Of a stretch of DNA of 64,000 nt, positions 3,363-64,000 are shown one piece after another (within the stretch, counting starts at the first letter, position 1; each line of letters opens with the position of its first letter). The position numbers and the translations under genes are program-made. Below the pieces are notes generated by a model. It was not told the origin of the DNA. It searched no databases and worked only from the letters and a program-made list of their open reading frames with translations. The DNA is taken from assembly GCA_964016885.1 (NCBI GenBank), contig OZ024742.1:272304001-272368000 (forward strand), written 5' to 3'. This DNA comes from Eledone cirrhosa. Lineage: Eukaryota.

Positions 3363-3408
3363 GACCGTCCTGACGAAGGCCAGTTAAGCCTGAAATGCAT
3401 AGACGGTT
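3363..3408 (+). ncRNA. Hammerhead ribozyme, family A (intact)
   Basis: GACCGTC-CTGACGA-AGGC CAGTTAA GCCT-GAAATGCATA-GACGGTT; palindromic stem III ATGCAT; predicted AUA cleavage after 3401. Confidence 0.88.
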
Positions 3409-6287: not shown

Positions 6288-6325
6288 CGAGAACAATTGT
6301 TTCACCATAGCGGATCTTCAGCTCG
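6288..6325 (-). ncRNA. Minimal hammerhead ribozyme in PLE 3' UTR
   Basis: CGAG-CTGAAGA-TCC GCTAT GGT-GAAACAATTGTT-CTCG; palindromic stem III ACAATTGT; ~170 nt downstream of the GIY-YIG stop on the same strand. Confidence 0.78.
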
Positions 6326-6493: not shown

Positions 6494-7205
6494 TCAATCC
6501 AGAGCTTTGTAGTTATGTAAGAGTGGTTTCCAGAAATGTGGACAGCATGTGATGATTTCATTACTTGAGTTTAGGTAATCGCTATTGCGTAATCTCTTTA
6601 GAATTGTTATCCGTTCAACAATACATAGTCCACAAGACGGATTGCCCCTTGCATATGGATTGGACTTGGTGATGTCTTTCCATTGAATGGAATACTCTAT
6701 ACTTGAGACCTTGAGGGACCATACGTGTCTAACGAGTTTAGTGAATGATCGTGTGTCCGGGTACCTAAAGGTCGACTGATGATTCAGGAAGCGTTCCTTA
6801 AATCGGGCCTCCGCCATACGCACATAAGATTTGACATTCTGTGGTTTATTTGGTCAGTTGGAAGTGACCATAGCTTCATAAACTACAGCGGGTCTGTTGC
6901 ATTGCTGTTGGAGGGGACAAGATTTAGGCTTTCGGCAAGAGCACCCTGGTGGGATGTTGATTTTAGGGCTGTTGGTGATGTGGGCCTTCATATTCTTAGC
7001 GCAGAAGTACTCTAGTTTTAAGTGTATCTGATAAAGATGGAACGGTATTTGTGACCTATGGGAACGTGTCTATCTAAGAGGGCTAAAACTGTTTTTCTTA
7101 CATTAGTATTAATGTTGAGTGATAAGTGAGGAGAGAACCTGATAGTTTGTCTATTGTTAGGCTTTCTTTTCTTATTGCCGTTGACGTTAGTGGGAGAGTA
7201 AGAAA
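6494..7205 (-). pseudogene. Penelope-like element (Naiad-like) Cys-rich linker and GIY-YIG endonuclease, disrupted
   Basis: CSCRKPKSCPLQQQC..AVVY..YV(R)MAEARFKERFLNH..CGLC..E..LN..CCPH; one in-frame stop. Confidence 0.85.
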
Positions 7206-7209
7206 GATC

Positions 7210-7661
7210 ACAAGGTAGACTTTACTTCTAGTCCCACGTGTAGACTACTAAACGCGGCACACACGGATATTGGACTAGTCAGTAAGCCTATACTTAGACA
7301 CATAGTTAAGGCCATTAAGACCAAGTCCAACCTGTCCCAGTGGGATAATAGCGACTCCGTCATTAAGTGGTTTAAATCCTTCAAATCCAAAAAAGCGATG
7401 TTCACGCAATTCGACATTGTAGTGTTTTACCCGTCGATCTCAGAGACTCTGTTAAACAAAGCGTTGGGCATTGCTACCACTTACACTACCATCCATGATT
7501 TAGACAAGGAAATCATCGCTCACTGCCGGAAAACCCTCCTCTTCAACAACGGAGTAGCCTGGGCAAAGAAGTCAACCACCTCAAAACTATTCGACGTCTC
7601 CATGGGATTGTTTGACAGTGCTGACGTCTGCGACTTGGTTGGCCTATTTATTTTAGAATAA
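7210..7661 (+). pseudogene. Penelope-like element (Naiad-like) RT fragment, inverted relative to its 3' part
   Basis: FTQFDIVVFYPSIS..FDVSMGLFDSADVCDLVGLFIL. Confidence 0.85.
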
Positions 7662-17981: not shown

Positions 17982-18731
17982 ATAATAATAATAATCAGCG
18001 ATTTTATATATAATAATAATAATAAGCAGCGATTCTTTGCTTAAACTTTAATCTGTTATTTTAATAAATATATATATATATATCAATCAATTTCTAGTTG
18101 ATATAAAATGCTCGGATGTATTCATTGGAATCTTTGAGCATATTCTACAGTGGATATGGTGCATGTCTCTCGGACATGACACCCTTAATTTAATTTGGGA
18201 TATATATATACGGCCGCTTATTTGTAGAGCTAACTCAGTTGAAATTACTGGGTTGCTATTTCTAGTTGTCGATAATCCTATTCACGCCACTGGGATGACG
18301 CTGGTACGTGGTGTGTATTTAAAAAAAATGCAACACGTGCTGCTAGTCATTCACAGATTTGCATTTGCTGTGTAAACACAGATAGTTAAATGTTCTCAAT
18401 TGTGGAAATCCGAATTCGACTACTGTGATTTACCGATCGATTGATGGTGAAAAATATTTCTTTAATGAAATATATACAAGGAAGATTAATTATTTTAAAA
18501 GGTATTTATATTTAAAGTTCTACATAAACTTTAATTAGTTACCTACCTAGATGTGTGCTTACACACTTTACAAATTATTCCCTGTGATTGTTTCATATGT
18601 TTATTTTTTATATATTATTATATGACAATCAATGTCTAGTTGATATAAAAAGCTCGGATATATTCATTGGAAGAGCTTTGGGCATGGTCTACAGTGGATA
18701 TGGCGCATGTCTCTCGGACATGACACCCTTA

Positions 18732-19589: not shown

Positions 19590-20051
19590 ATTTTAATAAC
19601 CTCTGTCATTTTCGTTCTACTAATTTATTTACATTATTCTTAACTCCGAAGCAGAGAATCATTCGGTTTCCTAAATAGAATATTAGTCTACGATTCCATT
19701 TATACCATAAGCGTGGTGTTGTGTTTGCGTGTAATTGTTCTCATCGCTCCACATAACGACGGATTATATTCGCTTTTTCCGTTCATTGCCAGGGAACGCT
19801 TCACGAACCATAGTATCGTTATCTTGTTTTCCTACGGTTGCAACGTTTTTCAAAATAATTCCTCCTGCGTTCACTGATTGATTTGTTTAGTTCCAGAAGA
19901 TCCCGTTAAAGATGAAAGCAGCAATTTTTGCTTAAGCTTTAATCTGTTATTTTAATAAATATTTGCTCTAGGGTTCTTATATAATTGATATATATTTATC
20001 CTTATATTTTTATCCTTATCTTTGGATTTTAGTCTTCACATTTATTATTAT

Positions 20052-20060
<9 letters not shown>
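19590..20060 (+). mobile_element. Solo 3'-UTR copy of the Naiad-like PLE family at 20978-24620
   Basis: Clear similarity to 24150-24620 including the CAGAAGA..GAAAGCA motif. Confidence 0.75.
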
Positions 20061-20093
<33 letters not shown>

Positions 20094-20297
20094 ATAATAA
20101 TAGATTTGAGTAATTGCTGGCCTTGTGCCAAAAGTAGAAATAATTATTTGGAGCGGTGAAAACAATAACACGCGAAGACAAAACCACGTTTATGGTACAA
20201 ATGGTATAAATTAAAAGCATTTAGAAGATCTTACGCTATTATGTTTAGAGCAGTGACAGTGTCACTTACTTCAATCTTCAGCAAACAGCGGAGATAA

Positions 20298-20342
20298 AGC
20301 TGACAGAGTTCTGTTTCGACCTTGTTGGTACTTATCAAAGCT
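20298..20342 (-). ncRNA. Hammerhead ribozyme, U3-A8 core variant
   Basis: AGCT-TTGATAA-GTACC AACAA GGTC-GAAACAGAACTCTGTC-AGCT. Confidence 0.7.
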
Positions 20343-20605
20343 AAACTACTCCGCCTGTCTGCTGAAAATCATGAACGTTTGATTCTTATAGAATTCCAGT
20401 AATAATCAGCTTTTAATTAAGCATACAGTGTATTGCAAAATACACTATATATATATTCATATATATATCGCTATTTCAGAGCACCATTTCTAATTTTCAA
20501 TGTTTGCTTGACCGGCAACTGATCTGTATAATCAGTTCCTAATTATTACTGGAATTCTATAAGAATCAAACATTCATGATTTTCAGCAGAGAGGCGGAGT
20601 AGTTT

Positions 20606-20648
20606 AGCTTTGATAAGTACCAACAAATACGAAACAGAGCTGTCAGCT
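20606..20648 (+). ncRNA. Hammerhead ribozyme, U3-A8 core variant
   Basis: AGCT-TTGATAA-GTA..TAC-GAAACAGAGCTGTC-AGCT; GUC at 20642-20644. Confidence 0.75.
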
Positions 20649-20797
20649 TTATCTCCCCTGTTTGCTGAAAATTCAAGTAAGTAACACTGTCACTGCTCTA
20701 ATAACAATAGCGTAAAGTCTTCAAAAGGCTTTTAATTAAGCATACAGTGTATTGGAAAATACACTATATATATACATTATTATATGTATATATATAT

Positions 20798-20843
20798 AGC
20801 TCTGACGAATCCTACGGTTTGGTAAGGAAGAAACATTGTAAGC
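20798..20843 (+). ncRNA. Minimal hammerhead ribozyme
   Basis: GCT-CTGACGA-ATCCT..AGGAA-GAAACATTGTA-AGC; 3-bp stem I, GUA site. Confidence 0.6.
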
Positions 20844-20885: not shown

Positions 20886-20981
<96 letters not shown>

Positions 20982-22029
20982 ATAATAATAAATTTGAAGA
21001 ATAAAATCCAAAGGGGGCTCGATAAGGATAAATATATATCAAATATATAAGAACCGTAGAGCAAATATTTATTAAAATAACAGATTAAAATGTAAGCAAA
21101 AATCGCTGCTTTCACCCTTAACCGGATCTTCTGAAACTAACAAAGTCAATCTGTAAACGCAGAAGTGGATATTTCAAAAAACGTTGCACCCGGAGCAAGA
21201 CAGGAAGACGATACTTTGGTTCGTGGAAACGTTCGCTGGCAAAGAACGGGAAAAAACGATAATACGTCATTAATAGGAGCGGTGAAAAACAATTACGCGC
21301 AGACAGAACCACGTTTGTGCTATAAAAGAGGTCGTAGACTAATGTTCTCTTAGGTGGTTCTTAGAGACGTTCTCAGGCAATGAACGAAAAAAAACGAAGA
21401 TAAAACGTCATATGTGGAGCGCAGAGAACAATAGCACGCAAAGACAAAACCACGTAAATGGTATAGCAGAAGTCGTAGACTAAAATTCTAACTAGGAGAC
21501 CGAATGAATCTCCGCTAAAGAGTTAGGAACAAAGTAAATCAATACAATACAGAAGTAATAGAAATAAATAAATACATACACGCAAACAAATACGTACATA
21601 CACAAGCATACGCAAAACACTTACCATAGGTATACAAAGCCACGCACATATAAATATGTGTGTGTGTGTATGCGTGTATACAAAATAAATAAATAATTAT
21701 ATAAACGTATATAAATAAATAAATACGTATATAACAAGCGCACACACATACCTACATGTAAATACACGAGTGTTCGGAGACGTATGTCAACCAAACATGA
21801 AGTACACATATACGCGCACCCTACATACGTACGAACCTGCATACTCACACAGACGCAAAACTCCCGTATACACATAGCCAAACCATATGTACGAGAATAT
21901 ATAAAAATATACGCCATAACAATCAAATATACGTACGAGAAGGTATACGTAACTTCACAAAACATACGGGTAATAAATACTTACCTATGCAAATAAGTAA
22001 TGGTATAAACAAAACATATACTTAGCTGC

Positions 22030-23602
22030 CACTTTACCCTGAAGGATCACAAATTTAATTATCCGAACAACCTCTCTATTCGGCTTATTAACCCTACGAA
22101 GTCCGATTTAGGTAGACTTAGTAAAAGGATTCTTGATAGAATTATACCTTAAATTAGAAGTTTGGCCCCTCTTGCATTGTGGAACAATTCTTTCGCGGTG
22201 ATTGATTGGTTCAACGGCATATTTAACAAGGAACATTGCCGTTTTATCCAATTCGACATCAACAATTACTACTCCTCCATCACTTTACCACTTCTCCTTA
22301 GAGCTATCAATTTCGTTAACACACTCACAGTGGTTAAGGATTTCGAAGTTGGTGTCATCCTCAATGCCCGAAAGTCGGTGATTAATTTCGACGACTCTAT
22401 TTGGATTAAAAAATCCAATTGTACCCCATTCGACGTGAGTATGAGCTCCAGTGATTCTGCGGAACTTACTGATCTTATCGGCCTTTTCCTTATTTTCTCT
22501 ATCAAGGACGAATTCCCCAACGCGGGTGGAGGTTTGTATCGTGACGATGGTCTTTTGGCCATGACTAAGTGCGGACCTCGTGCTTGCGACAGGTTCAGAA
22601 AAGAACTCACAGCCTTCTTTAAAGTCTTCAACCTCTCTATACAGGTTGAGGCCAATCTCTCGTTCGTTAATTACCTCGAAGTTACCCTCAATTTATTGAA
22701 TGGGTTTATTACCCGTATAGAAAGCCGAATGATACGCTTAATTACATAAGTATGCATTCCAACCATCCTGCCAGCATAACCAAGAACCTGGTAAGAAACG
22801 TTTCGTTGAGGATTTCCCGTCTTTCCACCAACGAGCGTATTTTCAACGACCATTCCAATTATTACAATGAAGTTCTTGCTCGAAGTGGATTTGTCGATAA
22901 GGTAGCATATACAGAGTACGAAATTAGACCTAGAAGAAATAGATCCCGTCGCATTTGTTGGTATAACCCACCATATAATATGGAGGTGGCCACACCATTA
23001 GCTACGATCTTTCTTTCCCTTATTACGAAGCATTTTCCCCCTACACATAAATATAGTAAAATTTTTAATAGAAATACTATTAAAATTTCTTACTCTAAGA
23101 CTACTAACCTTGCACATAACATCACAGCTTTAAATTTAGCTAAACTACCTAGCCGTAGGAACACGTGCAACCCTGTAGTTAGTACTAACTGTAATTGTAG
23201 GAATCGGGTTGATTGCCCCCTATCCGGGAAATGCCTCTCTAGTAACATTGTCTACAAATGTAAGGTTGTAACACCCACATCCCGTAGGGCCAAATTGGGT
23301 TAACCGCCAATAGATTAGAGCAGCGTCTTTACATGCATACACATTCCTTTCGTTACCCTCTAAGAAGGAATATGACATCACTTTCAGCTTATATCTGGAG
23401 TCTAAAAGACAACCACACCCAATATAAGTTACACTGGGAGATCCTAGCTAGGGCTAGATCGTATAACGGAAATAAAAGACCATGTTACCTCTGCGCCGCT
23501 GAGGCCCTGGAAATACTCTACGCCACAGACCATATCTTAAACAAAAAATCTAAGGCAATTTCGGCTTGTAAACATAAATTGCACAACAGTTTCCTGTATT
23601 AG
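22030..23602 (+). pseudogene. PLE reverse transcriptase and GIY-YIG endonuclease (frameshifted)
   Basis: FIQFDINNYYSSI, FDVSMSSSDSAELTDLIG, LYRDDGL, WYNPPY, CNCRNRVDCPLSGKC..NIVY, CYLC..E, ACKH. Confidence 0.9.
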
Positions 23603-24550
23603 AGCCCCACGTTATACCCTAACGGATAGTACGATCTATACGTGGATATTTTACGTCTTGGTGTGGGAGCTAAGTATATGTTTTGTTTATACCATTACTT
23701 ATTTGCATAGATAAGTATTTATTACCCGTATGTTTTGTGAAGGTACGTATACCTTTTCGTACGTATATTTGATTGTTATGGCGTATATTTTTATATATTC
23801 TGGTACATATGGTTTGGCTATGTATATACGGGAGTTTTGCGTCTGTGGGAGTATGCAGGTTCGTACGTATGTAGGGTGCGCGTATATGTGTACTTCATGT
23901 TTGGTTGACATACGTCTCCGAACACTCGTGTATTTACATGTAGGTATGTGTGTGCGCTTGTTATATACGTATTTATTTATTTATATACGTTTATATAATT
24001 ATTTATTTATTTGTATACACGCATACCCACACACACATGTTTATATGTGCGTGGTTTGTATACCTATGGTAAGTGTTTTGCGTATGCTTGTGTATGTACG
24101 TATTTGTTTGCGTGTATGTATTTATTTATTTCTACTACTTCTGTATTGTATTTATTTACTTTGTTCCTAACTCTGTAGCGGAGATTCATTCGGTCTCCTA
24201 GTTAGAATTTTAGTCTACGACTTCTGCTATACCATTTACGTGGTTATGTCTTTGCGTGCTATTTTTCTCCACGTTCCACATATGACGTTTTATCTTCGTT
24301 TTTTTCGTTCATTGCCAGAGAACGTCTCTATGAGCCACCTAAGAGAACATTAGTCTACGAACTCTTTTATACCATAAACGTGGTTCTGTCTTTGCACGTA
24401 ATTGTTTTCCTATTAATGACGTATTATATTCGTTTTTTCCCGTTCTTTGCCAGCGAACGTTTCCACAAACCAAAGTATCGTCTTCCTGTCTTCCTCCGGT
24501 TGCAACGTTTTTTGAAATATCCACTTCTGCGTTTACAGATTGACTTTGTT

Positions 24551-24601
24551 AGTTTCAGAAGATCCCGTTAAGGGTGAAAGCAGCGATTCTTTGCTTAAAC
24601 T
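24551..24601 (+). ncRNA. Hammerhead-like motif with A4 core variant (CAGAAGA)
   Basis: AGTTT-CAGAAGA-TCCC GTTAA GGGT-GAAAGCA..TGCTT-AAACT; same core at 19894, ~21130 (minus) and 58797. Confidence 0.62.
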
Positions 24602-25110
24602 TTAATCTGTTATTTTAATATATATATATATATATATAAATTATAGAGGTTTACATATATACATAAACTAGACAGACACATAGATATACATATGTCCGTT
24701 TTCGCAAGCATTCACGATGTGGCTCAATGACGAATTAATTAATTTAACAATCACACTCAGAGCAATATATAAAGTAAGTCTATAGAATCATTTCGTAAAA
24801 CATATACAGTATTTCCTCTCTCAATCAGCATAATCACCACATAACAAATCAATTAAACGAGGCTATAAGTTTAAAATGTATCTATGAAGAAACAAGAGAT
24901 CAAAAAATAATAGCTATTTTATCCGCGATCCACAGCCTCAGAAGATTTACCTACTATTTCTAATAGCCCGTAGAAATTGACTAGACATACAGTTAACCAT
25001 ACACAATTAGGTACAAAATCAAAGTTAGAAGAAAATACACTGTGACCTTACGTTATTGTTATTAGAGCAGTGACAGTGTCACTTCAATTTTCAGCAAACA
25101 GGGGAGATAA

Positions 25111-28550: not shown

Positions 28551-30040
28551 TTTTCTTTATTAACCACAAGGGTTTACACAAAGTAGACATTAAGTACAGT
28601 ACATGACAAAAGAGGACGGTACAAAAGGACATTTCTGCGTGTGAAAAAACAAAAAAAAACGAGCATGTAAAAATAGAACAATGAAAAAATTCCCCAATAG
28701 GGGGGACAGCTCCGAGGGACATTCGTGGAGAAAGCCCATTAACAAGCCACAGTGATCCTGACCACCAGGGCAAGTGTCCTCTCCCAGTTTTCCACTTTTA
28801 ATTTACAGAGACATACTCAGAGTAGGCCCATTCACTCGGGCCATTCTTGCATCTCCCACCTATCTTTCAACAAAATGCTGAGAATATAGCACTTCCATCT
28901 CTACCCTGATTTTCCTTTTCAAATGAAATTTGAAACAGTCAATCAGGGCATCACCGAAGAGGTAAGTGCTCGTCTTTAGCCCTTTCAAACGTGTCCCCCA
29001 TACTATATCTTTCGCCATGGCCACCAGACAGATAAAAACTGCCTGCCCTTCCCGGCTAAAGGAGGAGGGCGGGGCCATCCTCACGATCGACTCAGCTGAT
29101 AGCCAGATCCGTCCTACACGCGACAGCAGGTGGTCGACATTAACCCATAAGTAAGCAAGGCTCGGACATTGGACGAGTGCGTGCAGGAGGGTTTCGTCGA
29201 CCTGCGCGCATCTCGGACATGCCCGGGTGACGGCACCTGCATGCCTGTAGAGTTTATCCCGAACTTGCAAAGCTCCTCGGTAGCACTGCTAGACACCTAG
29301 CAATTTATTGGTCCGTCCATCCAGCGCCCGACGACGCTGTTGAACGGCATGGACCTGCCTCTCCAGGTAACGAACTTCAGGCCCACTGAATTTTCCTGGT
29401 TGATCATTGCTCCTGTCACCGCTTCGTATTCTCTTAGTGTATTGCCGATTGCCTCGATGTGTTTGGCGTTCGACACCACTACGGTGACATCGTCCGCATA
29501 TGCTGACACGGATCTTCCTATCCTACTTCGCGCGGGGCGCCCCTCAACGTCTCCAGTTTGTGCAGAAATGGCTCGAGAATCAATACGTACAAGAAGGAAG
29601 AGAGTAGACATCCTTGGCGGACCGAGCGCATGATGTTGAACGGTTCCAAAAAGTAATCGTTCACTCTCACCACAGAGCAAATGTCGCTGTGCATGGCAGC
29701 GATCCAGCCTCTGAAGACGGGCCCAAAGCCAGCCGCCTTCAGGACTGCCGCTAGGTAAAGATGGTTGACCATATCGAAAGCTTTCGACTGATCTAAAGTA
29801 ATCAAGGACCCACCCGTGCCAGGTTCCCTACCTACCCTCTCTACGATGTATCGCATGAGGTGGAGGTTGTCGTGGTTGGATCTGTCGGGAATGGCGCATG
29901 ATTGCGCCTCTCCCACCAGACGACAAACGACAAGTGCCAACCTCTTTGCTAGCACCATGGCCAAAATCTTGAACTCTGTGTTTAGCAGTGTTATGGGCCT
30001 GAAATTATCTATGTTAACCACCTTATCTATGTTATCCCCG
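28548..30040 (-). mobile_element. Tx1/L1-type LINE (RT to 3' end), disrupted
   Basis: NFRPITLLNTEFKILA, LDQSKAFD, VRQGC, SAYADDVTV, CPRC..ET..HALVQC; AATAAA then ATT tail. Confidence 0.9.
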
Positions 30041-30445
30041 ATGTGCAAATTGGGCTGCTCAGTCGTTAATATGCATAAGGAAAGAATATACCTTCAGACG
30101 TTCAACCATCTGGCAGGAAGGTATACGATGCTGACGATAGCTTATAAGCTTGAAACTAGTACATCGTTCCTGTGTCGATGTTAAACAAAAAGGTGACGTG
30201 GTTGCCTAAACACTGTACGGCGAAATTCGGGCTGTTTGTTTGTTTACAAACAAACAAACCGAGCCTTATAATAAATGTTCGGTAAACCGATACGTGCATA
30301 TATGTATGTGTGCATGTATGTATATATATACATACTACTGTACGTATGTATACATATATGTATGTAAGTATACATAAATACATACTTACATTCAAGTATG
30401 TGCCGTACTAAGAGTGAGAAATGAAATTTCCTTACATTCTATTCC
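30041..30445 (+). mobile_element. Retrozyme-like family B unit
   Basis: Homologous to the 420-bp unit at 44903-46190; ends in (TA)n. Confidence 0.8.
30125..30167 (+). ncRNA. Hammerhead ribozyme, family B (intact)
   Basis: ACGATG-CTGACGA-TAGCT TATA AGCTT-GAAACTAGTA-CATCGT; perfect 6-bp stem I, palindromic ACTAGT, GUA cleavage after 30161. Confidence 0.88.
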
Positions 30446-30698: not shown

Positions 30699-31469
30699 TT
30701 TTGCGAGGTTTTTTATATGAAATCGTGTGTCGAAACAGATATTGTTATATTTGGGGAGGGTCATATTTGCGTAATATTGCCAGAATTAATAACAGAACAC
30801 ACTCACTGTTTGGTTGGTTTTCGCTTCTCGCTGTCTTTTATATATATATATCTGCGATCTAACTTACTCGGTCCTCAATGTTGCCATTGACTGACCGGCG
30901 GTCAAAAATAATACAGATACAATATAGACAAACACATATATATATAGTTTACATAATTTACATAAATCTTTCGTTGCACATCTGCAACATCGTCAGTGGT
31001 GTTATATTCATTGTTCCTCCTGTTGTGTTGTATGTCTACGCCATTTTTTTTTTTTTTTTTTGTTCAGTCTGTCTATATATTTATTTATTTATTTGCTTGT
31101 TTGTTTATCTTATTTTATTTTGTCTTCTTTGCGCATGCGTTTGCGTGTGTGTATAGTGTTATGTGTGATGTGTGACTAGTGTGTATAGTGTTGTGTCTGC
31201 TGGGTGACTAGTGTGTGTTTATGTGCTTGTGTATGTATTTATTTATCTTATTTTATTTATTTTATTTAATTTACTTATTTATTTATACTTCTCTTAGGTC
31301 AGTGTTGTTTGTTTGGGTGTTGTTGTTGTTCCACTCATTCTTTCTGTTTAGCTTTGGTCTTCTAATTTCTATTTCACTGGCCTCTCTGATTTGCCTATCT
31401 GCTGGGTCATTCCTATGTTTAGATATTATTCTAATTTCTATGTTGTCTATGTTACCGTCATGTTGTTGT

Positions 31470-32543
31470 CTAGCATGTTCGTATAGTACTGACCCGTTTT
31501 TTCGTCCTTTTAGTTCCCCCCCAGTGTTGGTCTATCCTTTCACCTATGCTACGAGCTGTCTCACCTATGTATGTTGTTGTCGTGTTTCTGCAAGTACCCT
31601 CTGTACATCTTATGCTATAGACTACGTTTCTAGTTTTACAGTTTATCCGGGGGTTCACCTTACATATGATACATTTCCTATTGGTACAGTGGGTTTTCTT
31701 AAAAGGGTAGGTTTTGCTGATCAGGGATTTTATGGTGGTTCCTGGCTTTTCTACCACCTTTATTTTTAAGTGGGTCTTTCTCGGGGCCTTTCTACACTGG
31801 TTAGCTAATTTCCCTCCAGGGGTGGCGTCCACAAACATGACACTCTGATATCTCTGGTTGTCGTACCATGATGTGGCCTTCCCTATCTTATGTCTAGCCC
31901 TATCTAAGCTATTCCATGATTTGCTCCTGTATAGTGAGCAAATTCCTTTCATGTCCAGTTCTATGAGGGTCTTATTCTTTTCCATGGCTCCTTCGTATAC
32001 TCTGACTCTGTCTCTTTGGTTGTAGCCAGAGAACTGCATGCGGTTGATGAAGTGTTGGATGTGTCCTTCCATTTCTGTTGGGTCGCACATGCTGGACACA
32101 TTCTTCATCACTCGTACCAAATCTGCGATCAGAATATTAAACTTAGCACTACTGGACATTGCTGAGTTTTTGAGTATCAGGTATTTGGAGGCCATGGGTT
32201 TAGCATAGTGTGAGTGGAGAATTTGGGCTCTCTCGTCTATAGTGTTAATCCAGAGTTCTGTGTCTAATACAGGTAGTCTATTGTTAGGGTGTTTGGAAGG
32301 GAAGTCTATAGTTACAGTTATACTCTGGTGTATGGAATTAGCTATCTGCTGGATGCTTTCCATCGTGCTACGTTCTAAATCAAACTTGTTAGTGCTCTCT
32401 AGTGGGGGTGTTCTTATAACTATGTTGATATCGTCTACATAACGAGAGTACATGATGAGGTCTATGGAGCTTTCATTAAGGAGGAGATCTTTAAGTCTCC
32501 TTTCCCACCATACCATGAAAAGGTTGGCAACATCACCAGCTAT
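31470..32543 (-). pseudogene. Inverted partial copy of PLE RT/GIY-YIG
   Basis: Same protein as 33293 onward with a few substitutions and a G7 vs G6 frameshift near 31520. Confidence 0.9.
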
Positions 32544-32544
32544 C

Positions 32545-34552
32545 CTCAACGCTCACATGATGATGTGGACTGACATCCTAAAGCCAAGCAGACGCACTGC
32601 CAACAACTTCCAGGCGTCTAACAATGGCATACCACGCTTGTATGGGCTCCGCAAAGACCACAAGACAGTCGACGACCCGACAACAGGACCACCAACAAGA
32701 CCTGTATGCGGAGCTAATATAGCTAGCAACTACAGGATCTCCTACTTCCTCTCAATGGTTATACGCCCCATAATCAAGATGTCCCCAGATGTATGTGAAA
32801 GTACAGAGGACCTCCTCAGCAGAATCAGTGAGTGCAACAAAAACAGGAGCCTATCCAACTGCATAATAGGCAGCATGGATGTGGTGTCACTGTACCCATC
32901 CATTAACATTGATTTTGCTGTGAAAATCATGTGTGGAGATGATCATTGAGAGTGAGGTGGAGTTCTGCGACGTCGACACAGACGAACTGGGCCTCCTACT
33001 TAGACTTACCTACGACACTGACTACCTAGACAGCCATGACCTTAGATGTTTCTGCCCTAGTAGACCTATAAGAGGTAGACCCCCCACCATAACCTCAATG
33101 GCTAAAAAGACTCCCATAGGAAGGTGGATTGGGTGGACCAAAGCTATACGGACCCCCCAAAACACTGATCAGGTAAGAAAAATGGTCGCACATGCATTAG
33201 GGGCTAGTATCAAAACTACCCTAAAGGGCCACATATTTAAGTTCAATGAGAAAATCTACACCCAAAATGAGGGAGCAGCCATCGGCGTCAGCATAGCTGG
33301 TGATGTTGCCAACCTTTTCATGGTATGGTGGGAAAGGAGACTTAAAGATCTCCTCCTTAATGAAAGCTCCATAGACCTCATCATGTACTCTCGTTATGTA
33401 GACGATATCAATATAGTTATAAGAACACCCCCACTAGAGAGCACTAACAAGTTTGATTTAGAACGTAGCACGATGGAAAGCATCCAGCAGATAGCTAATT
33501 CCATACACCAGAGTATAACTGTAACTATAGACTTCCCTTCCAAACACCCTAACAATAGACTACCTGTATTAGACACAGAACTCTGGATTAACACTATAGA
33601 CGAGAGAGCCCAAATTCTCCACTCACACTATGCTAAACCCATGGCCTCCAAATACCTGATACTCAAAAACTCAGCAATGTCCAGTAGTGCTAAGTTTAAT
33701 ATCCTGATCGCAGATTTGGTACGAGTGATGAAGAATGTGTCCAGCATGTGCGACCCAACAGAAATGGAAGGACACATCCAACACTTCATCAACCGCATGC
33801 AGTTCTCTGGCTACAACCAAAGAGATAGAGTCAGAGTATACGAAGGAGCCATGGAAAAGTATAAGACCCTCATAGAACTGGACATGAAAGGAATTTGCCC
33901 ACTATACAGGAGCAAATCATGGAATAGCTTAGATAGGGCTAGACATAAGATAGGGAAGGCCACATCACGGTACGACAACCAGAGATATCAGAGTGTCATG
34001 TTTGTGGACGCCACCCCTGGAGGGAAATTAGCTAACCAGTGTAGAAAGGCCCTGAGAAAGACCCACTTAAAAATAAAGGTGGTAGAAAAGCCAGGAACCA
34101 CCATAAAATCCCTGATCAGCAAAACCTACCCTTTTAAGAAAACCCACTGTACCAATAGGAAATGTATCATATGTAAGGTGAACCCCCGGATAAACTGTAA
34201 AACTAGAAACGTAGTCTATAGCATAAGATGTACAGAGGGTACTTGCAGAAACACGACAACAACATACATAGGTGAGACAGCTCGTAGCATAGGTGAAAGG
34301 ATAGACCAACACTGGGGGGAACTAAAAGGACGAAAAAACGGGTCAGTACTATACGAACATGCTAGACAACAACATGACGGTAACATGAACAACATAGAAA
34401 TTAGAATAATATCTAAACATAGGAATGACCCAGCAGATAGGCAAATCAGAGAGGCCAGTGAAATAGAAATTAGAAGACCAAAGCTAAACAGAAAGAATGA
34501 GTGGAACAACAACAACACCCAAACAAACAACACTGACCTAAGAGAAGTATAA
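32545..34552 (+). CDS. PLE polyprotein (RT plus C-terminal GIY-YIG), 5'-truncated, one frameshift near 32930
   Basis: PRLYGLRKDHK..TRPV..GSMDVVSLYPSI / GAAIG..ANLFM..YSRYVDDI..LPVLD..CxxxxCxxC..NVVY..C..YIGETARSIGERIDQH..REA..PKLN. Confidence 0.92.
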
Positions 34553-34838
34553 ATAAATAAGTAAATTAAATAAAATAAATAAAATAAGATAAATAAATAC
34601 ATACACAAGCACATAAACACACACTAGTCACCCAGCAGACACAACACTATACACACTAGTCACACATCACACATAACACTATATACACACGCAAACGCAT
34701 GCGCAAAGAAGACAAAATAAAATAAGATAAACAAACAAGCAAATAAATAAATAAATATATAGACAGACTGAACAAAAAAAAAAAAAAAAAAAATGGCGTA
34801 GACATACAACACAACAGGAGGAACAATGAATATAACAC

Positions 34839-34876
34839 CACTGACGATGTTGCAGATGTGCAACGAAAGATTTATG
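34839..34876 (+). ncRNA. Hammerhead-like core in PLE 3' UTR (mirror copy ~30960-30997 minus)
   Basis: CTGACGA-T GTTGCA GATG TGCAAC-GAAAGATTTA; strong stem II but only ~2 bp of stem I. Confidence 0.45.
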
Positions 34877-35121
34877 TAAATTATGTAAACTATATATATA
34901 TGTGTTTGTCTATATTGTATCTGTATTATTTTTGACCGCCGGTCAGTCAATGGCAACATTGAGGACCGAGTAAGTTAGATCGCAGATATATATATATATA
35001 TAAAAGACAGCGAGAAGCGAAAACCAACCAAACAGTGAGTGTGTCCTGTTATTAATTCTGGCAATATTACGCAAATATGACCCTCCCCAAATATAACAAT
35101 ATATATATATATATATATATA

Positions 35122-44906: not shown

Positions 44907-46330
44907 TATGTACACGTACATACATATATGCATACAGATGTACAGTAGTATGTATATATACATACATGCACACATATATATATTTGTACGTATGGATTCA
45001 CCGAACATTTATTATGATGCTCGGTGTGTTTGTAAACAAACATCCCGTATTAAGCCGTTGCTCGTTTGTTCAACACTGACAAATGAACGCTGTACTAGTT
45101 TCAAGCTTATTAACTATCGTCAACAACCTATACCTTCCTGCCAGATTGTTCAACGTATATACTTACCTTATGCATATTAACGGCTGAGTAGCCCAAGTTG
45201 CATATCGAGTGGGTTAATCGGCCGAGTGCACCGAAAACGATAAACGGAAAAAATGAAACGAAATTTCATTTCCGACTCTTAGTACGGCTGTTACTTAAAT
45301 ATAAGTATGTACACGTACATACATATATGCATACAGACGTACAGTAGTATGTATATATATATACATACATGCACACATGTATATATGTACGTATGGATTC
45401 ACCGAACATTTATTATAATCCTCGGTGTGTTTGTAAACAAACATCCCGTATTAAGCCGTGGTGTCTAGCAACCATCGTTGCTCGTTTGTACAACACTGAA
45501 AAAGGAACGCTGTACTAGTTTCAAGCTTATTAGCTATCTTCAGCAACGTATACCTTCCTGCCAGATTGTTGAACGTATATACTTACCTTATGCATATTAA
45601 CTGCTGAGTAGCCCAATTTGCATATAGTGTGGGTTAATCGGCCGGGTGCACCGATAACGATAAACGGAAGAAATGAAACGAAATTCCATTTCCCAGTCTT
45701 AGTACGGCTGTTACTTAAATATAAGTATGTACACGTACATACATATATGCATACAGACGTACAGTAGTATGTATATATATATACATACATGCACACATAT
45801 ATATATGTACGTATAGATTTACCGAACATTTATTATAATGCTCGGTGTGTTTGTAAATAAACATCCCGTATTAAGCCGTAGTGTCTAGCAACCATCGTTG
45901 CTCGTTTGTTCAACACTGACAAACGAACGCTGTACTAGTTTCAAGCTTATTAACTATCGTCAGCAATGTATAACTTCCTGCCAGATTGTTGAACGTATAT
46001 ACTTACCTTATGCATATTAACGGCTGAGTAGCCCAATTTGCATATCGAGTGGGTTAATCGGCCGGGTGCACCGAAAACGATAAACGGAAAAATTGAAACG
46101 AAATTTCATTTCCCACTCTTAGAACGGCTGTTACTTAAATATAAGTATGTACACGTACATACATATATGTATACAGACGTACAGTATATATATATATAAT
46201 ACGGGATGTTTGTTTACAAACACACCGAGCATTATAATAAATGTTCGGTGAATCCATGCGTACATATATATATATGTGTTAATGTATGTATATATATATA
46301 CATACTACTGTACGTATGTATGCATATATG
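44903..46330 (-). mobile_element. Retrozyme-like family B: three tandem 420-bp units plus short inverted arm
   Basis: HHRs at 45087-45129, 45507-45549, 45927-45969 spaced exactly 420; 46195-46330 inverted. Confidence 0.9.
45507..45549 (-). ncRNA. Hammerhead ribozyme, family B
   Basis: ACGTTG-CTGAAGA-TAGCT AATA AGCTT-GAAACTAGTA-CAGCGT. Confidence 0.85.
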
Positions 46331-58624: not shown

Positions 58625-58915
58625 CAATTGTGTGTAATTGTTTTACCGCTCCTAATTATGGCGTATTATCTTCATTTTTTCGGTTCTTTGCCAGGGAACG
58701 TTTCCACAAACTAAAGTATCGACTTCCTATATGCCTTCGGTTGTAACGTTTTTCGAAATATTGACTTCTGCGTTCACAGTTTGATATTTTTAGCTTCAGA
58801 AGATCCCGTTAAGTGTGAAAGCAGCGATTATTTGCTTATTTTAATAAATATTTGCTCTACGGTTCTTATACATTTGATATATATTTATCCTTATCGAGCC
58901 CTCTTTGGGTTTTAG
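58625..58915 (+). mobile_element. Solo 3'-UTR copy of the Naiad-like PLE family
   Basis: Similar to 24395-24620 and reverse complement of 21000-21300; CAGAAGA motif at 58797. Confidence 0.78.
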
Positions 58916-58934
58916 TCTGTATTGCGGTGGCATT

Positions 58935-61649: not shown

Positions 61650-63560
61650 AAACACAAACACAACATTCTACAGACCTAACTGCAAGTACTAAACAAACTA
61701 CAAAAAGACTCTGCAATAATCATAAAAGAAGCGAACAAAGGTGGAGCAATCATGGACAACAACCACTACCATGATATGGTCCTAGAACAGTTGAATAACG
61801 AGGACGTTTACAGAAAAATCAGCAAAAACGAAGAAAGAAAATCGATGTTTAAAGTAGACAAACTGACGACCAAGTACCAAAACAACCTCACACTAAAGGA
61901 AATCAATTACTTACCCAACTTCGAAATGAAAACCAGCAATTTCTATGGTTTACCGAAGGTTCACAAATCCAGAGAAATCCAAAATAACATAAAAGGAAAA
62001 ACTACATCATATGTTGAAGTACCAAAACCGACAGATTTAAAATGACGCCCAACTGTTGCTGGTCCTGCCTCAAGCACACTAAGCAACCTATTAGACATCA
62101 TACTGAAACCCTTATGCAAAAAGTGCCAAGCCTCATCAAATATGATATGGAATTCTTGAACTATATCTCCCAGAAATTACACCAAGAAACAATCTTAGTC
62201 AGCTTTGACGTAACAAGCTTATATACTAACATCCCACACGACTTAGGAGATGAAACTGTTGACTTCTGGATTACAAAACATCCAGACAACATTTCAGAGA
62301 GATTCCCCAAACAATTTATTTTGGATGGACTCAAACTTGTACTGGATAACAACCACTTCCTTTTTGATAAAGGAACGGCCATGGGTACCAAAGTGGCCCC
62401 AAAATAGGCAACACACGTTATGGGTAACCAGGAGGCAAAATTACATTCCAAACTGCGGGAAACAATCAGTCATAACTTCGTCACCTACATTAATCATAAC
62501 TAGAAAAGCTACCTAGACGACTGCTGCATAATCTGGAATAGAAGCCAAGAAGACCTGCAAAGGATCCATTCCATCATAAACAATCCTCTCGAAAAATAAA
62601 ATTCACCATGGAATGTAATAAAAAGGAACTACCCTTTCTGGATATCCTTGTCATTAAGGAATGGGAAAATATCAAAACGAACTTGTTTTACAAACCAACA
62701 GACACACAAATACTTGAATTTCCGTTCAGCACACCCATTACATACCAAAAGGAACATTCCTTTTAACATGGTAATACACATCTGCACCATAGTAACACAC
62801 CCCACACTATAGGAAAAAATATTATATGAATTAAAAGAGTTTCTTAGGAGACAGGAATATCCGGTGAACCTCATCAATACAGCAATCTCCAAAGCCCAAG
62901 ACATCCCAGTGACAACACTGAGAAAAACAAAGTAACATAATAGAATGGAAAACAGTTATCCCTTTTGTCATCGCTCACAATCCAAGGAACTTCAACATTG
63001 TAAAAGTCGCCAATCAATATCTCCCTATTATCCAGCAGTCCCCTAAAATGAATGCACACATAAAAGACGCACACATTATATATATTAGACGCCAAGCACC
63101 CAACCTAAAGAAACTGCTTACCAAGGCAAAATTTGCGTATAATAATGAAGCAATGCAAGTTAAGAAATGCGGGGACTCTCGATTCAGAATTTGCGAACTC
63201 TTTGAAGAGGGTGGACAACTCTCCTTTAAAAACAACCAGTCTTTCACACTTAATGCAAACATGAACTGCAAAACAAAAAAATTAGTTTACTGTGCAACCT
63301 GCCCACAATGTAAAGAATACTACATTGGGGAAACCAGAACGGGACTACATAACAAAGTTCGAGTACATATACAACAAATTAGAGACTCCTCTGTCAGAAA
63401 CACCACATGCAGTGAACACTTCGCTACATGCGGAAATGGACATTTCACAATTTTCCCCTTCTTTAAGATATGGTCGGACAACGAACACTTCCCAAAATAT
63501 AGAGAAAAATTATTTATTAGCAAATACAAACCACTACTGAACACAAAAAAAGTGATATTC
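61650..63560 (+). pseudogene. PLE (Neptune-like) RT and GIY-YIG, disrupted
   Basis: NFYGLPKVHK, VSFDVTSLYTNIPH, KGTAMGTKVAP, YLDD, LPFLDI, NCKTKKLVYCATCPQCKEYYIGET..PLLN. Confidence 0.88.
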
Positions 63561-64000
63561 CATCTTCAAGCAACGGGATTCTCCCGCTTTCTTTTCTATA
63601 AAATAATCTCATATTGGAAAAGAAAAATAATTGATGACACCCGTAATTTCAAACATTCGATCGCAGAAGAAAAATCCTCAGAGGTACAATAACATTTCTA
63701 TCATTTCCCCTTCCCCACACCAATGTATATATGAACTTAAACACTTGTATAGATGTGTTTTTTTTTATTTATGTGTCTGTAGGTATACAGATATATGTGT
63801 ACATGTTTATGTGTATGTGTGCATATGTGTTTGTATATTTATATGTATGTATGCACGTGCTTATGTGTGAGATAGATATGTGTGAGATGAGTGTATATAT
63901 ATGTATGTGTATGTGTATATGTATATGTGGATATATGTATAATATATTTATATGTATATATATATATGTATATGTAAAAAGTATATATATATATATATAT

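Follow-up and report, generated by a model that had tools for sequence, protein, structure and literature searches.

A Penelope-like element (PLE) of Eledone cirrhosa carries in its terminal repeat a hammerhead-like fold in which position 4 of the core is an A, and this A4 is the consensus state of the repeat family. U4 is normally invariant in hammerhead cores. We consider the A4-consensus hammerhead to be a weak or nearly silent ribozyme, likely unneeded for the copying of the element, and give this reading a probability of about 0.55.

The A4 motif and its copies

Within the window (the whole analysed stretch, 64,000 nucleotides) the pattern CAGAAGA-N(3-30)-GAAA has six matches, four of which, at 19894(+), 21110-21133(-), 24556(+) and 58797(+), belong to one repeat family; the other two, at 2437 and 24939, were rejected as unrelated in sequence to this family. 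The first-pass annotation had placed a CAGAAGA core in four copies of a PLE 3' end; all four cores were borne out (the minus-strand one at 21133), and the location proved to be the 3' terminal repeat of a PLE that by its motifs is of the Hydra clade. The best preserved copy is organised as follows.

24535..24610, plus strand: whole motif, type I hammerhead-like fold with A at core position 4, including distal stem I
24535..24543, plus strand: 5' arm of distal stem I, 9 bp with 24602-24610 (predicted pair probabilities 0.76-1.0), then a 7-nt bulge, 24544-24550
24551..24555, plus strand: 5' arm of stem I, 5 bp with 24597-24601 (from sequence and descriptor)
24556..24562, plus strand: core C3-A4-G5-A6-A7-G8-A9, with A4 at 24557; identical in 4/4 copies, every alternative below 2% in X1
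24563..24575, plus strand: stem II, with a U10.1.U11.1 mismatch, three C-G pairs and a 5-nt loop; arms 24564-24566/24572-24574
24576..24596, plus strand: G12-A13-A14, stem III and U17 (24596)

Three helices thus surround the core of the 24556 copy, open at stem I (5+9 bp; 3 bp plus U.U; 5 bp), and the earlier statement that stems I, II and III all pair in this copy is confirmed by the sequence and by a hammerhead descriptor. Stem III has 5 bp (24579-24583/24591-24595), among them A15.1-U16.1 and G15.2-C16.2, and a 7-nt loop, and the triplet C-U-U at 24594-24596 places the predicted cut between 24596 and 24597. CUU is a slow hammerhead cleavage triplet. The pairs and bases C3-G8, G5, A6, A9, G12, A13, A14, A15.1-U16.1 and H17 are present in 4/4 copies, so that the first reading of an intact C3, G5, A6, G8, A9 and GAAA, with A at position 4 and a CUU site, stands; U at position 4 is absent, with A in 4/4 copies and in the consensus of run X1 described below. 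Two features had escaped that reading: the U.U that opens stem II, and the 9-bp distal stem I (24535-24543/24602-24610), in whose 5' arm all alternative letters stay below 2% in X1.

When the descriptor was left free at position 4 it matched the 24556 copy and four U4 motifs in the window, compared with 0.01 matches per shuffled window (100 shuffles), and a chance fold was rejected on this ground. A shifted core register was rejected since C3-G8, G5, A6 and A9 are obtained only in the present one, coding constraint on inspection, as each of the three frames meets a stop within about 20 codons, and sequencing or assembly error because four copies and independent runs carry A4. Folding z-scores of the whole motif, between -0.24 and -0.95, were uninformative. 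Rfam gave no match at gathering score anywhere in the window, canonical hammerheads included, and a search of 24300-24800 up to E 10 gave 7 matches, none to a hammerhead family.

Besides the terminal repeats of the host element, the family is represented by three pieces.

19674..20060, plus strand: older copy, truncated at its 5' side and about 82% alike to that at 24556; core with A4 at 19894, pairing of stem II broken
58628..58918, plus strand: older copy, truncated at its 5' side and about 86% alike to that at 24556; core with A4 at 58797, stem I without its deleted 3' arm
18024..18071, plus strand: fifth fragment, from stem III to the copy end, without core

A self-BLAST that made no use of the core recovered the same four copies together with the fragment at 18024-18071. 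The count of four given earlier must nevertheless be lowered to three independent copies, since those at 21133 and 24556 flank one insertion as its two ends (97.5% alike); the copies at 19894 and 58797 are 79-86% alike to these two and to each other. Every stem is intact in the 24556 copy but not in the other three, in all of which stem II is broken and of which the 58797 copy lacks the 3' arm of stem I. Among the window copies 4/6 stem II positions vary, each change breaking a pair, and the arms of stem III are invariant. The AGCTT and AAGCT arms that had been pointed out both occur, but they lie in different copies and are unseen at 2% in X1, and they were rejected as covariation; two-sided changes among the A4 copies number 0 in 22 pairs (5 rows, few independent copies). 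The core is better kept than its surroundings, with 0/15 core and 36/130 flank positions varying among the window copies (Fisher p 0.02). All five window pieces extend at least 20 nt beyond the predicted cut: two stop about 20 nt past this point and three some 90-110 nt past it, and these ends resemble the optional PLE tail. Canonical PLE copies also extend past the cut site, so the run-through does not single the A4 family out.

For the state of the family at large, runs X1, X4, X7 and X21, four among 20 listed, were compared over 24340-24616 at 80% likeness with a reporting floor of 2%. A sample of about 1 in 100 raw reads of X21 gave none on this stretch, which carries no weight. Run X1 yielded 11,400 contigs, 8,030 of them at least 95% alike, which suggests a large and young family. 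The 25 letter differences reported for X1 include one at 25% nine bases away from 24557 and none at 24557 itself. A4 is the family consensus, and the CUGAAGA consensus that would have spoken against the first annotation did not appear. Since the X1 contigs are depth-weighted, under-report indels and changes near contig ends, and may come from a species other than that of the window, they give the consensus and not an exact share. Runs X4 (12 contigs) and X7 (3 contigs), too thin to weigh, are not listed as differing at 24557 either. Probably a single source copy acquired A4 and passed it on to its descendants. In X1 the unpaired positions 24534, 24544 and 24548 vary at 11-25%, against less than 2% in the adjacent stems; for paired and core positions taken together, the lower variation compared with flank and loops does not reach significance (p about 0.06). 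The repeat (24200-24615) is also found in part in public runs of 15 differently labelled organisms and in two metagenomes, an occurrence that does not distinguish host range, horizontal transfer and contamination.

The window contains at least five distinct hammerhead-bearing repeat families, and at gathering score Rfam detects none of them. A second family, with a U3-A8 core, lies at 20610(+), 20338(-) and 25149(-), with an inverted pair at 20209-20737; in its stem I arms it resembles the older A4 copies. At 30131(+), 35360(-), 35654(+), 45543(-), 45963(-) and 55784(+) are canonical hammerheads with a U.U opening and a palindromic stem III, which belong to a retrozyme-like family that forms 420-bp tandem repeats, with an array at 45056-46202. 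Further canonical families are found at 3370(+), 3237(-) and 2908(-), at 6321(-), and at 20802(+). Other retroelement pieces occupy 7191-7661(+), 31470-34552(-), 62922-63692(+) and 29297-30093(-); among them are a second Hydra-like reverse transcriptase (RT) with 57% to L023, an RT-nuclease ORF duplicated at 99% (30739-32546 vs 33290-35102), a GIY-YIG domain and, by eye, a LINE-like RT.

Host element and related hammerheads

The A4 motif at 24535-24610 lies in the direct terminal repeat of an element with the following parts.

20980..22032, minus strand: inverted 5'-truncated terminal-repeat copy with tail and with the A4 core at 21133; approximate at the 20980 end (the inverted repeat itself spans 21065-22032)
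21970..23600, plus strand: 5'-truncated PLE ORF, broken by frameshifts and a stop; ends approximate
23663..24625, plus strand: direct 3' terminal repeat (pLTR), ending in (TA)n, 95% identical to the inverted copy over 974 columns

The ORF encodes an RT (YRDD), a CxCx5C linker and a C-terminal nuclease region with CxxC and CxH. Pfam left the ORF pieces unrecognised; the RT is 38-51% identical to full-length relatives and about 35-51% to any relative found, the only named one being from Argonauta (38%), and both linker and nuclease can be aligned with P0003. A tree of 51 RT pieces puts the element together with P0001, P0002, P0003 and P0005 (support 100/99) and the related loci examined in the sister group; this tree holds only related loci and unnamed proteins, and the Hydra-clade assignment rests on motifs. 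Marks of the Hydra clade given in section 11 of PMC8557442 are the CxCx5C linker, the CxxC/CxH nuclease motifs, (TA)n insertion and the pLTR. At the N-terminus the nearest proteins, P0001-P0003, have RWR and DKT and the Hydra mark is RWK and DKT; the window copy is 5'-truncated. By its motifs we class the element as a Hydra-clade PLE. On the sense strand of 21901-24640 the A4 motif is the sole hammerhead-like core, and no canonical hammerhead was found in this part of the pLTR element. Upstream of the motif the terminal repeat has a diverged internal duplication of about 140 bp (24204-24328 and 24344-24463, 75% alike).

To place the motif among its relatives the best 80 of 324 were taken, which amount to 79 PLE loci, and together with 4 viral ones 83 loci were scanned. 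The position-4-free descriptor gave 55 matches in 48 of these 83 loci: 52 with C3-U4-G8, two with U3-U4-A8 and one with A4. The A4 match, in L062, was taken as chance, being U3-A8, antisense and with loops of about 40 nt, and U4 is found in 52/52 C3-G8 motifs within this sample. Twenty non-redundant motifs of the relatives, with a 7-nt stem III insert, show strong covariation, and a covariance model of these canonical relatives finds 24548-24605 with 18.3 bits (E 0.0027), which ranks eighth among the 29 matches with E of at most 5, alongside the window's canonical motifs; the three damaged A4 copies were not detected by the same model. This match and an adjoining GCTC/GAGC hairpin lead us to regard the motif as the clade's terminal-repeat hammerhead. 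A degenerate version of the motif was absent from the metagenome and prokaryote genome contigs searched, four viral matches were rejected for being without stems, and no PLE relative was found in viral contigs.

The comparison with the clade separates what is ordinary in the motif from what is not. The stem II opening is non-standard (U.U) in 15/20 aligned relatives, and the 26 Hydra rows in File S2 of PMC8557442 have the U.U opening in 14/26 and U17 in 10/26; both features are ordinary for the clade, and the first-pass view of U17 and its CUU site as a deviation does not hold. The hammerheads described for Hydra-clade PLEs (PMC8557442) also share with the A4 family a type I fold at the 3' terminal repeat, a proximal stem I of 4-7 bp, (TA)n targets, the CxCx5C linker and CxxC/CxH. 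Three features appear particular to the A4 family. The same 26 rows have U4 (CUGA) in 26/26 and A4 in 0/26; they have G at 16.2 in 26/26, and the pair 15.2-16.2 is C-G in 20/20 aligned relatives, so that the G15.2-C16.2 of the A4 family is a two-sided swap; and the 5-bp stem III with its 7-nt loop is longer than the short near-palindrome of the Hydra hammerheads. In the supplement of PMC8557442 the A4 family's motif is absent. The minimal PLE hammerheads of Cervera and De la Pena 2014 (PMC4209133) resemble the A4 family in their pLTR location, in the low activity to be expected and in having family-level variants, but differ in that the core variant described for them in the part covered is U3-A8, with no change at position 4, and that they are without stem III and work as dimers.

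The hairpin GCTC/GAGC(A/C)C occurs in relatives between the hammerhead and the ORF start, usually twice, with 26 found vs 0.39 in shuffled sequence across 14 loci (L006, L011, L034, L037, L038, L040, L050, L056, L072, L073, L075, L076, L081, L082). In the A4 family this hairpin follows the hammerhead motif and lies close to the ends of the copies.

58854-58901, plus strand: GCTC/GAGC tail hairpin of the 58628..58918 copy
21062-21015, minus strand: GCTC/GAGC tail hairpin of the inverted copy

From its conservation the hairpin is a candidate signal for RT start or protein binding, and in this clade it is a better candidate for recognition than the hammerhead fold.

Expected activity of the A4 core and alternative readings

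If the motif is a weak or nearly silent ribozyme, A4 would act in two ways. It would disturb the turn at positions 4-5, and it is predicted to lengthen a competing helix in which the end of stem I and C3/A4 pair with U11.1 and GAAA, an A4-U11.1 pair being possible. U4 sits at the sharp turn of the hammerhead core (PMC11300833) and contacts the A6-N7 phosphate, and U4C considerably lowers activity in vitro (PMC3088659). In a study of all single and double mutants of one hammerhead (PMC9901934), the CUGA region has low activity except for the C3/G8 swap; its supplement contains no per-mutant values. ViennaRNA gives the competing helix 0.20-0.41 with A4 vs 0.01-0.03 with U4 in two shorter contexts, and it vanishes in the longest context tried. 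Two results count against the weak-ribozyme reading here: in short contexts A4 is predicted to reduce the hammerhead fold only about twofold, and by the same measure none of 20 canonical relatives folds better than the native motif (2.95-11.45 vs 2.8 kcal/mol).

Slow cleavage would cost the element little, since the RT would begin on uncut RNA further downstream, close to or at the tail hairpin. A known case is the anole Poseidon element PAc (Frangieh et al. 2024, PMC11167929), in which reverse transcription begins downstream of the cut site on uncut RNA, core mutants leave in vitro insertion unaffected, and templates cut to +20 of the ORF were still inserted, C3 and G8 preceding the start codon. 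PAc is like the A4 element in having a terminal-repeat hammerhead upstream of a tail and copies that pass the cut site; it differs in belonging to another PLE clade and in that canonical C3-G8-dependent cleavage, assisted by protein, was shown there, cleavage of the A4 motif being a prediction. Naiad PLEs lack a canonical hammerhead and yet attain high copy numbers (PMC8557442). In favour of a weak ribozyme we count the passage of all five window pieces beyond the cut, the insertion of core-mutant anole PLE and the abundance of Naiad; against it we count the better preservation of core than flank (p 0.02) and the retention of the 9-bp distal stem I and the 5-bp stem III. The first-pass annotation had offered three options, a new tolerated variant, an attenuated ribozyme and a dead fold retained for RT recognition, of which the attenuated ribozyme fits best and the tolerated variant keeps its place.

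The tolerated variant would be a working natural U4A hammerhead, in which the bulged long stem I, the monomer-type stem III and possibly a protein stabilise the core and tandem transcripts are usefully cleaved, and we regard it as tentative and rather unlikely. The invariance of the core among the window copies (p 0.02), the structured positions being quieter than bulge and flank in X1, and the otherwise intact core letters agree with it, as does the swap at 15.2-16.2, which points to selection on the fold at some time, perhaps before A4. In a second organism, one contig (depth about 4) seems to have retained CAGAAGA next to an altered loop II. Rescue of an A4 ribozyme may be possible, because the anole PLE hammerhead cleaves only with protein (PMC11167929), a precedent for protein-assisted cleavage, and because a viroid with a U4C ribozyme works in vivo and supports infection (Perreault et al. 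2011, PMC3088659). The viroid and the natural core variants of that paper resemble the present case in that a position-4 change was tolerated once in nature and the U10.1-U11.1 mismatch is known, but U4C is a pyrimidine swap in one viroid variant and the A4 family has a purine fixed in many copies. Several results weigh against useful cleavage: no two-sided change is found among the A4 copies, 4/6 stem II positions vary in the window copies so as to break pairs, copies of a young family share letters by descent, and in the mutant scan a second change gave no rescue in this region of low activity (PMC9901934). The evidence on selection for the fold is thus mixed.

How new a natural U4A hammerhead would be was looked into in the literature. 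Among the papers listed none was found by title and abstract, though figures 5 and S7 of PMC3088659 may list one; the supplement text searched for PMC4209133 and PMC3088659 gave none, the Perreault text being poorly searchable. No activity value for U4A was found in the texts covered, and the covered portions of PMC7151607, PMC11014351, PMC7229834, PMC6765202 and PMC544870 have no bearing on U4A. That the family is the first natural one to cleave with adenine at position 4, with the loss of the U4 contact offset and the motif kept under selection in a highly successful retroelement, seems to us doubtful. Variants of PLE hammerheads are reportedly also the subject of Lunse 2017 and Arkhipova 2017, which may bear on the novelty of a natural U4A.

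A dead fold kept for another job, either recognition by the RT/nuclease protein or use as a splice acceptor, is improbable. A conserved core without covariation would fit a sequence-level constraint, and A4 makes the junction of stem I and core, TTTCAG, acceptor-like, six bases after the TAG at the opening of stem I. In D. virilis the intron of Penelope extends to the 5' end of helix I (PMC4209133), donor-like sites occur in the repeat at 23741, 23942 and 24068, and YAG lies at most 10 nt before the core in 22 of 38 listed motifs, which are related and partly redundant. The intron is a prediction from sequence, though, and such short sites are common by chance. RT recognition is disfavoured by the anole PLE, which according to the covered part of PMC11167929 needs neither core nor cleavage for in vitro insertion, and by the tail hairpin, the better conserved recognition candidate (26 vs 0.39 shuffled).

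Least probable of all is a conformational switch, in which an A4-U11.1 pair, or a slipped stem II with A9-U11.1, would hold the core inactive until it is freed by the protein or by an adjacent repeat. In the 24556 copy the minimum-energy fold does pair 24553-24557 with 24575-24579, and over the window copies the slipped stem II has a slight advantage (87.5% vs 66.7% of cells paired), but for the 24556 copy slippage costs 1.4 kcal/mol in stability, the competing helix is gone in the longest context, the independent copies are only three, and nothing points to regulation.

Meaning for PLE hammerheads

The role of hammerheads in PLEs is debated, with cleavage dispensable in vitro in one study and the ribozymes seen as possible passengers in another paper. 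A multi-copy family with a fixed change in the conserved core is a natural test of this role. If the A4 RNA is active, search descriptors assume too narrow a core consensus, and if this were indeed the first cleaving A4 family, the consensus of the hammerhead core would be widened and searches based on CUGA would miss whole families. If the A4 RNA is dead, strong amplification of PLEs is possible in the absence of cleavage, with the fold retained.
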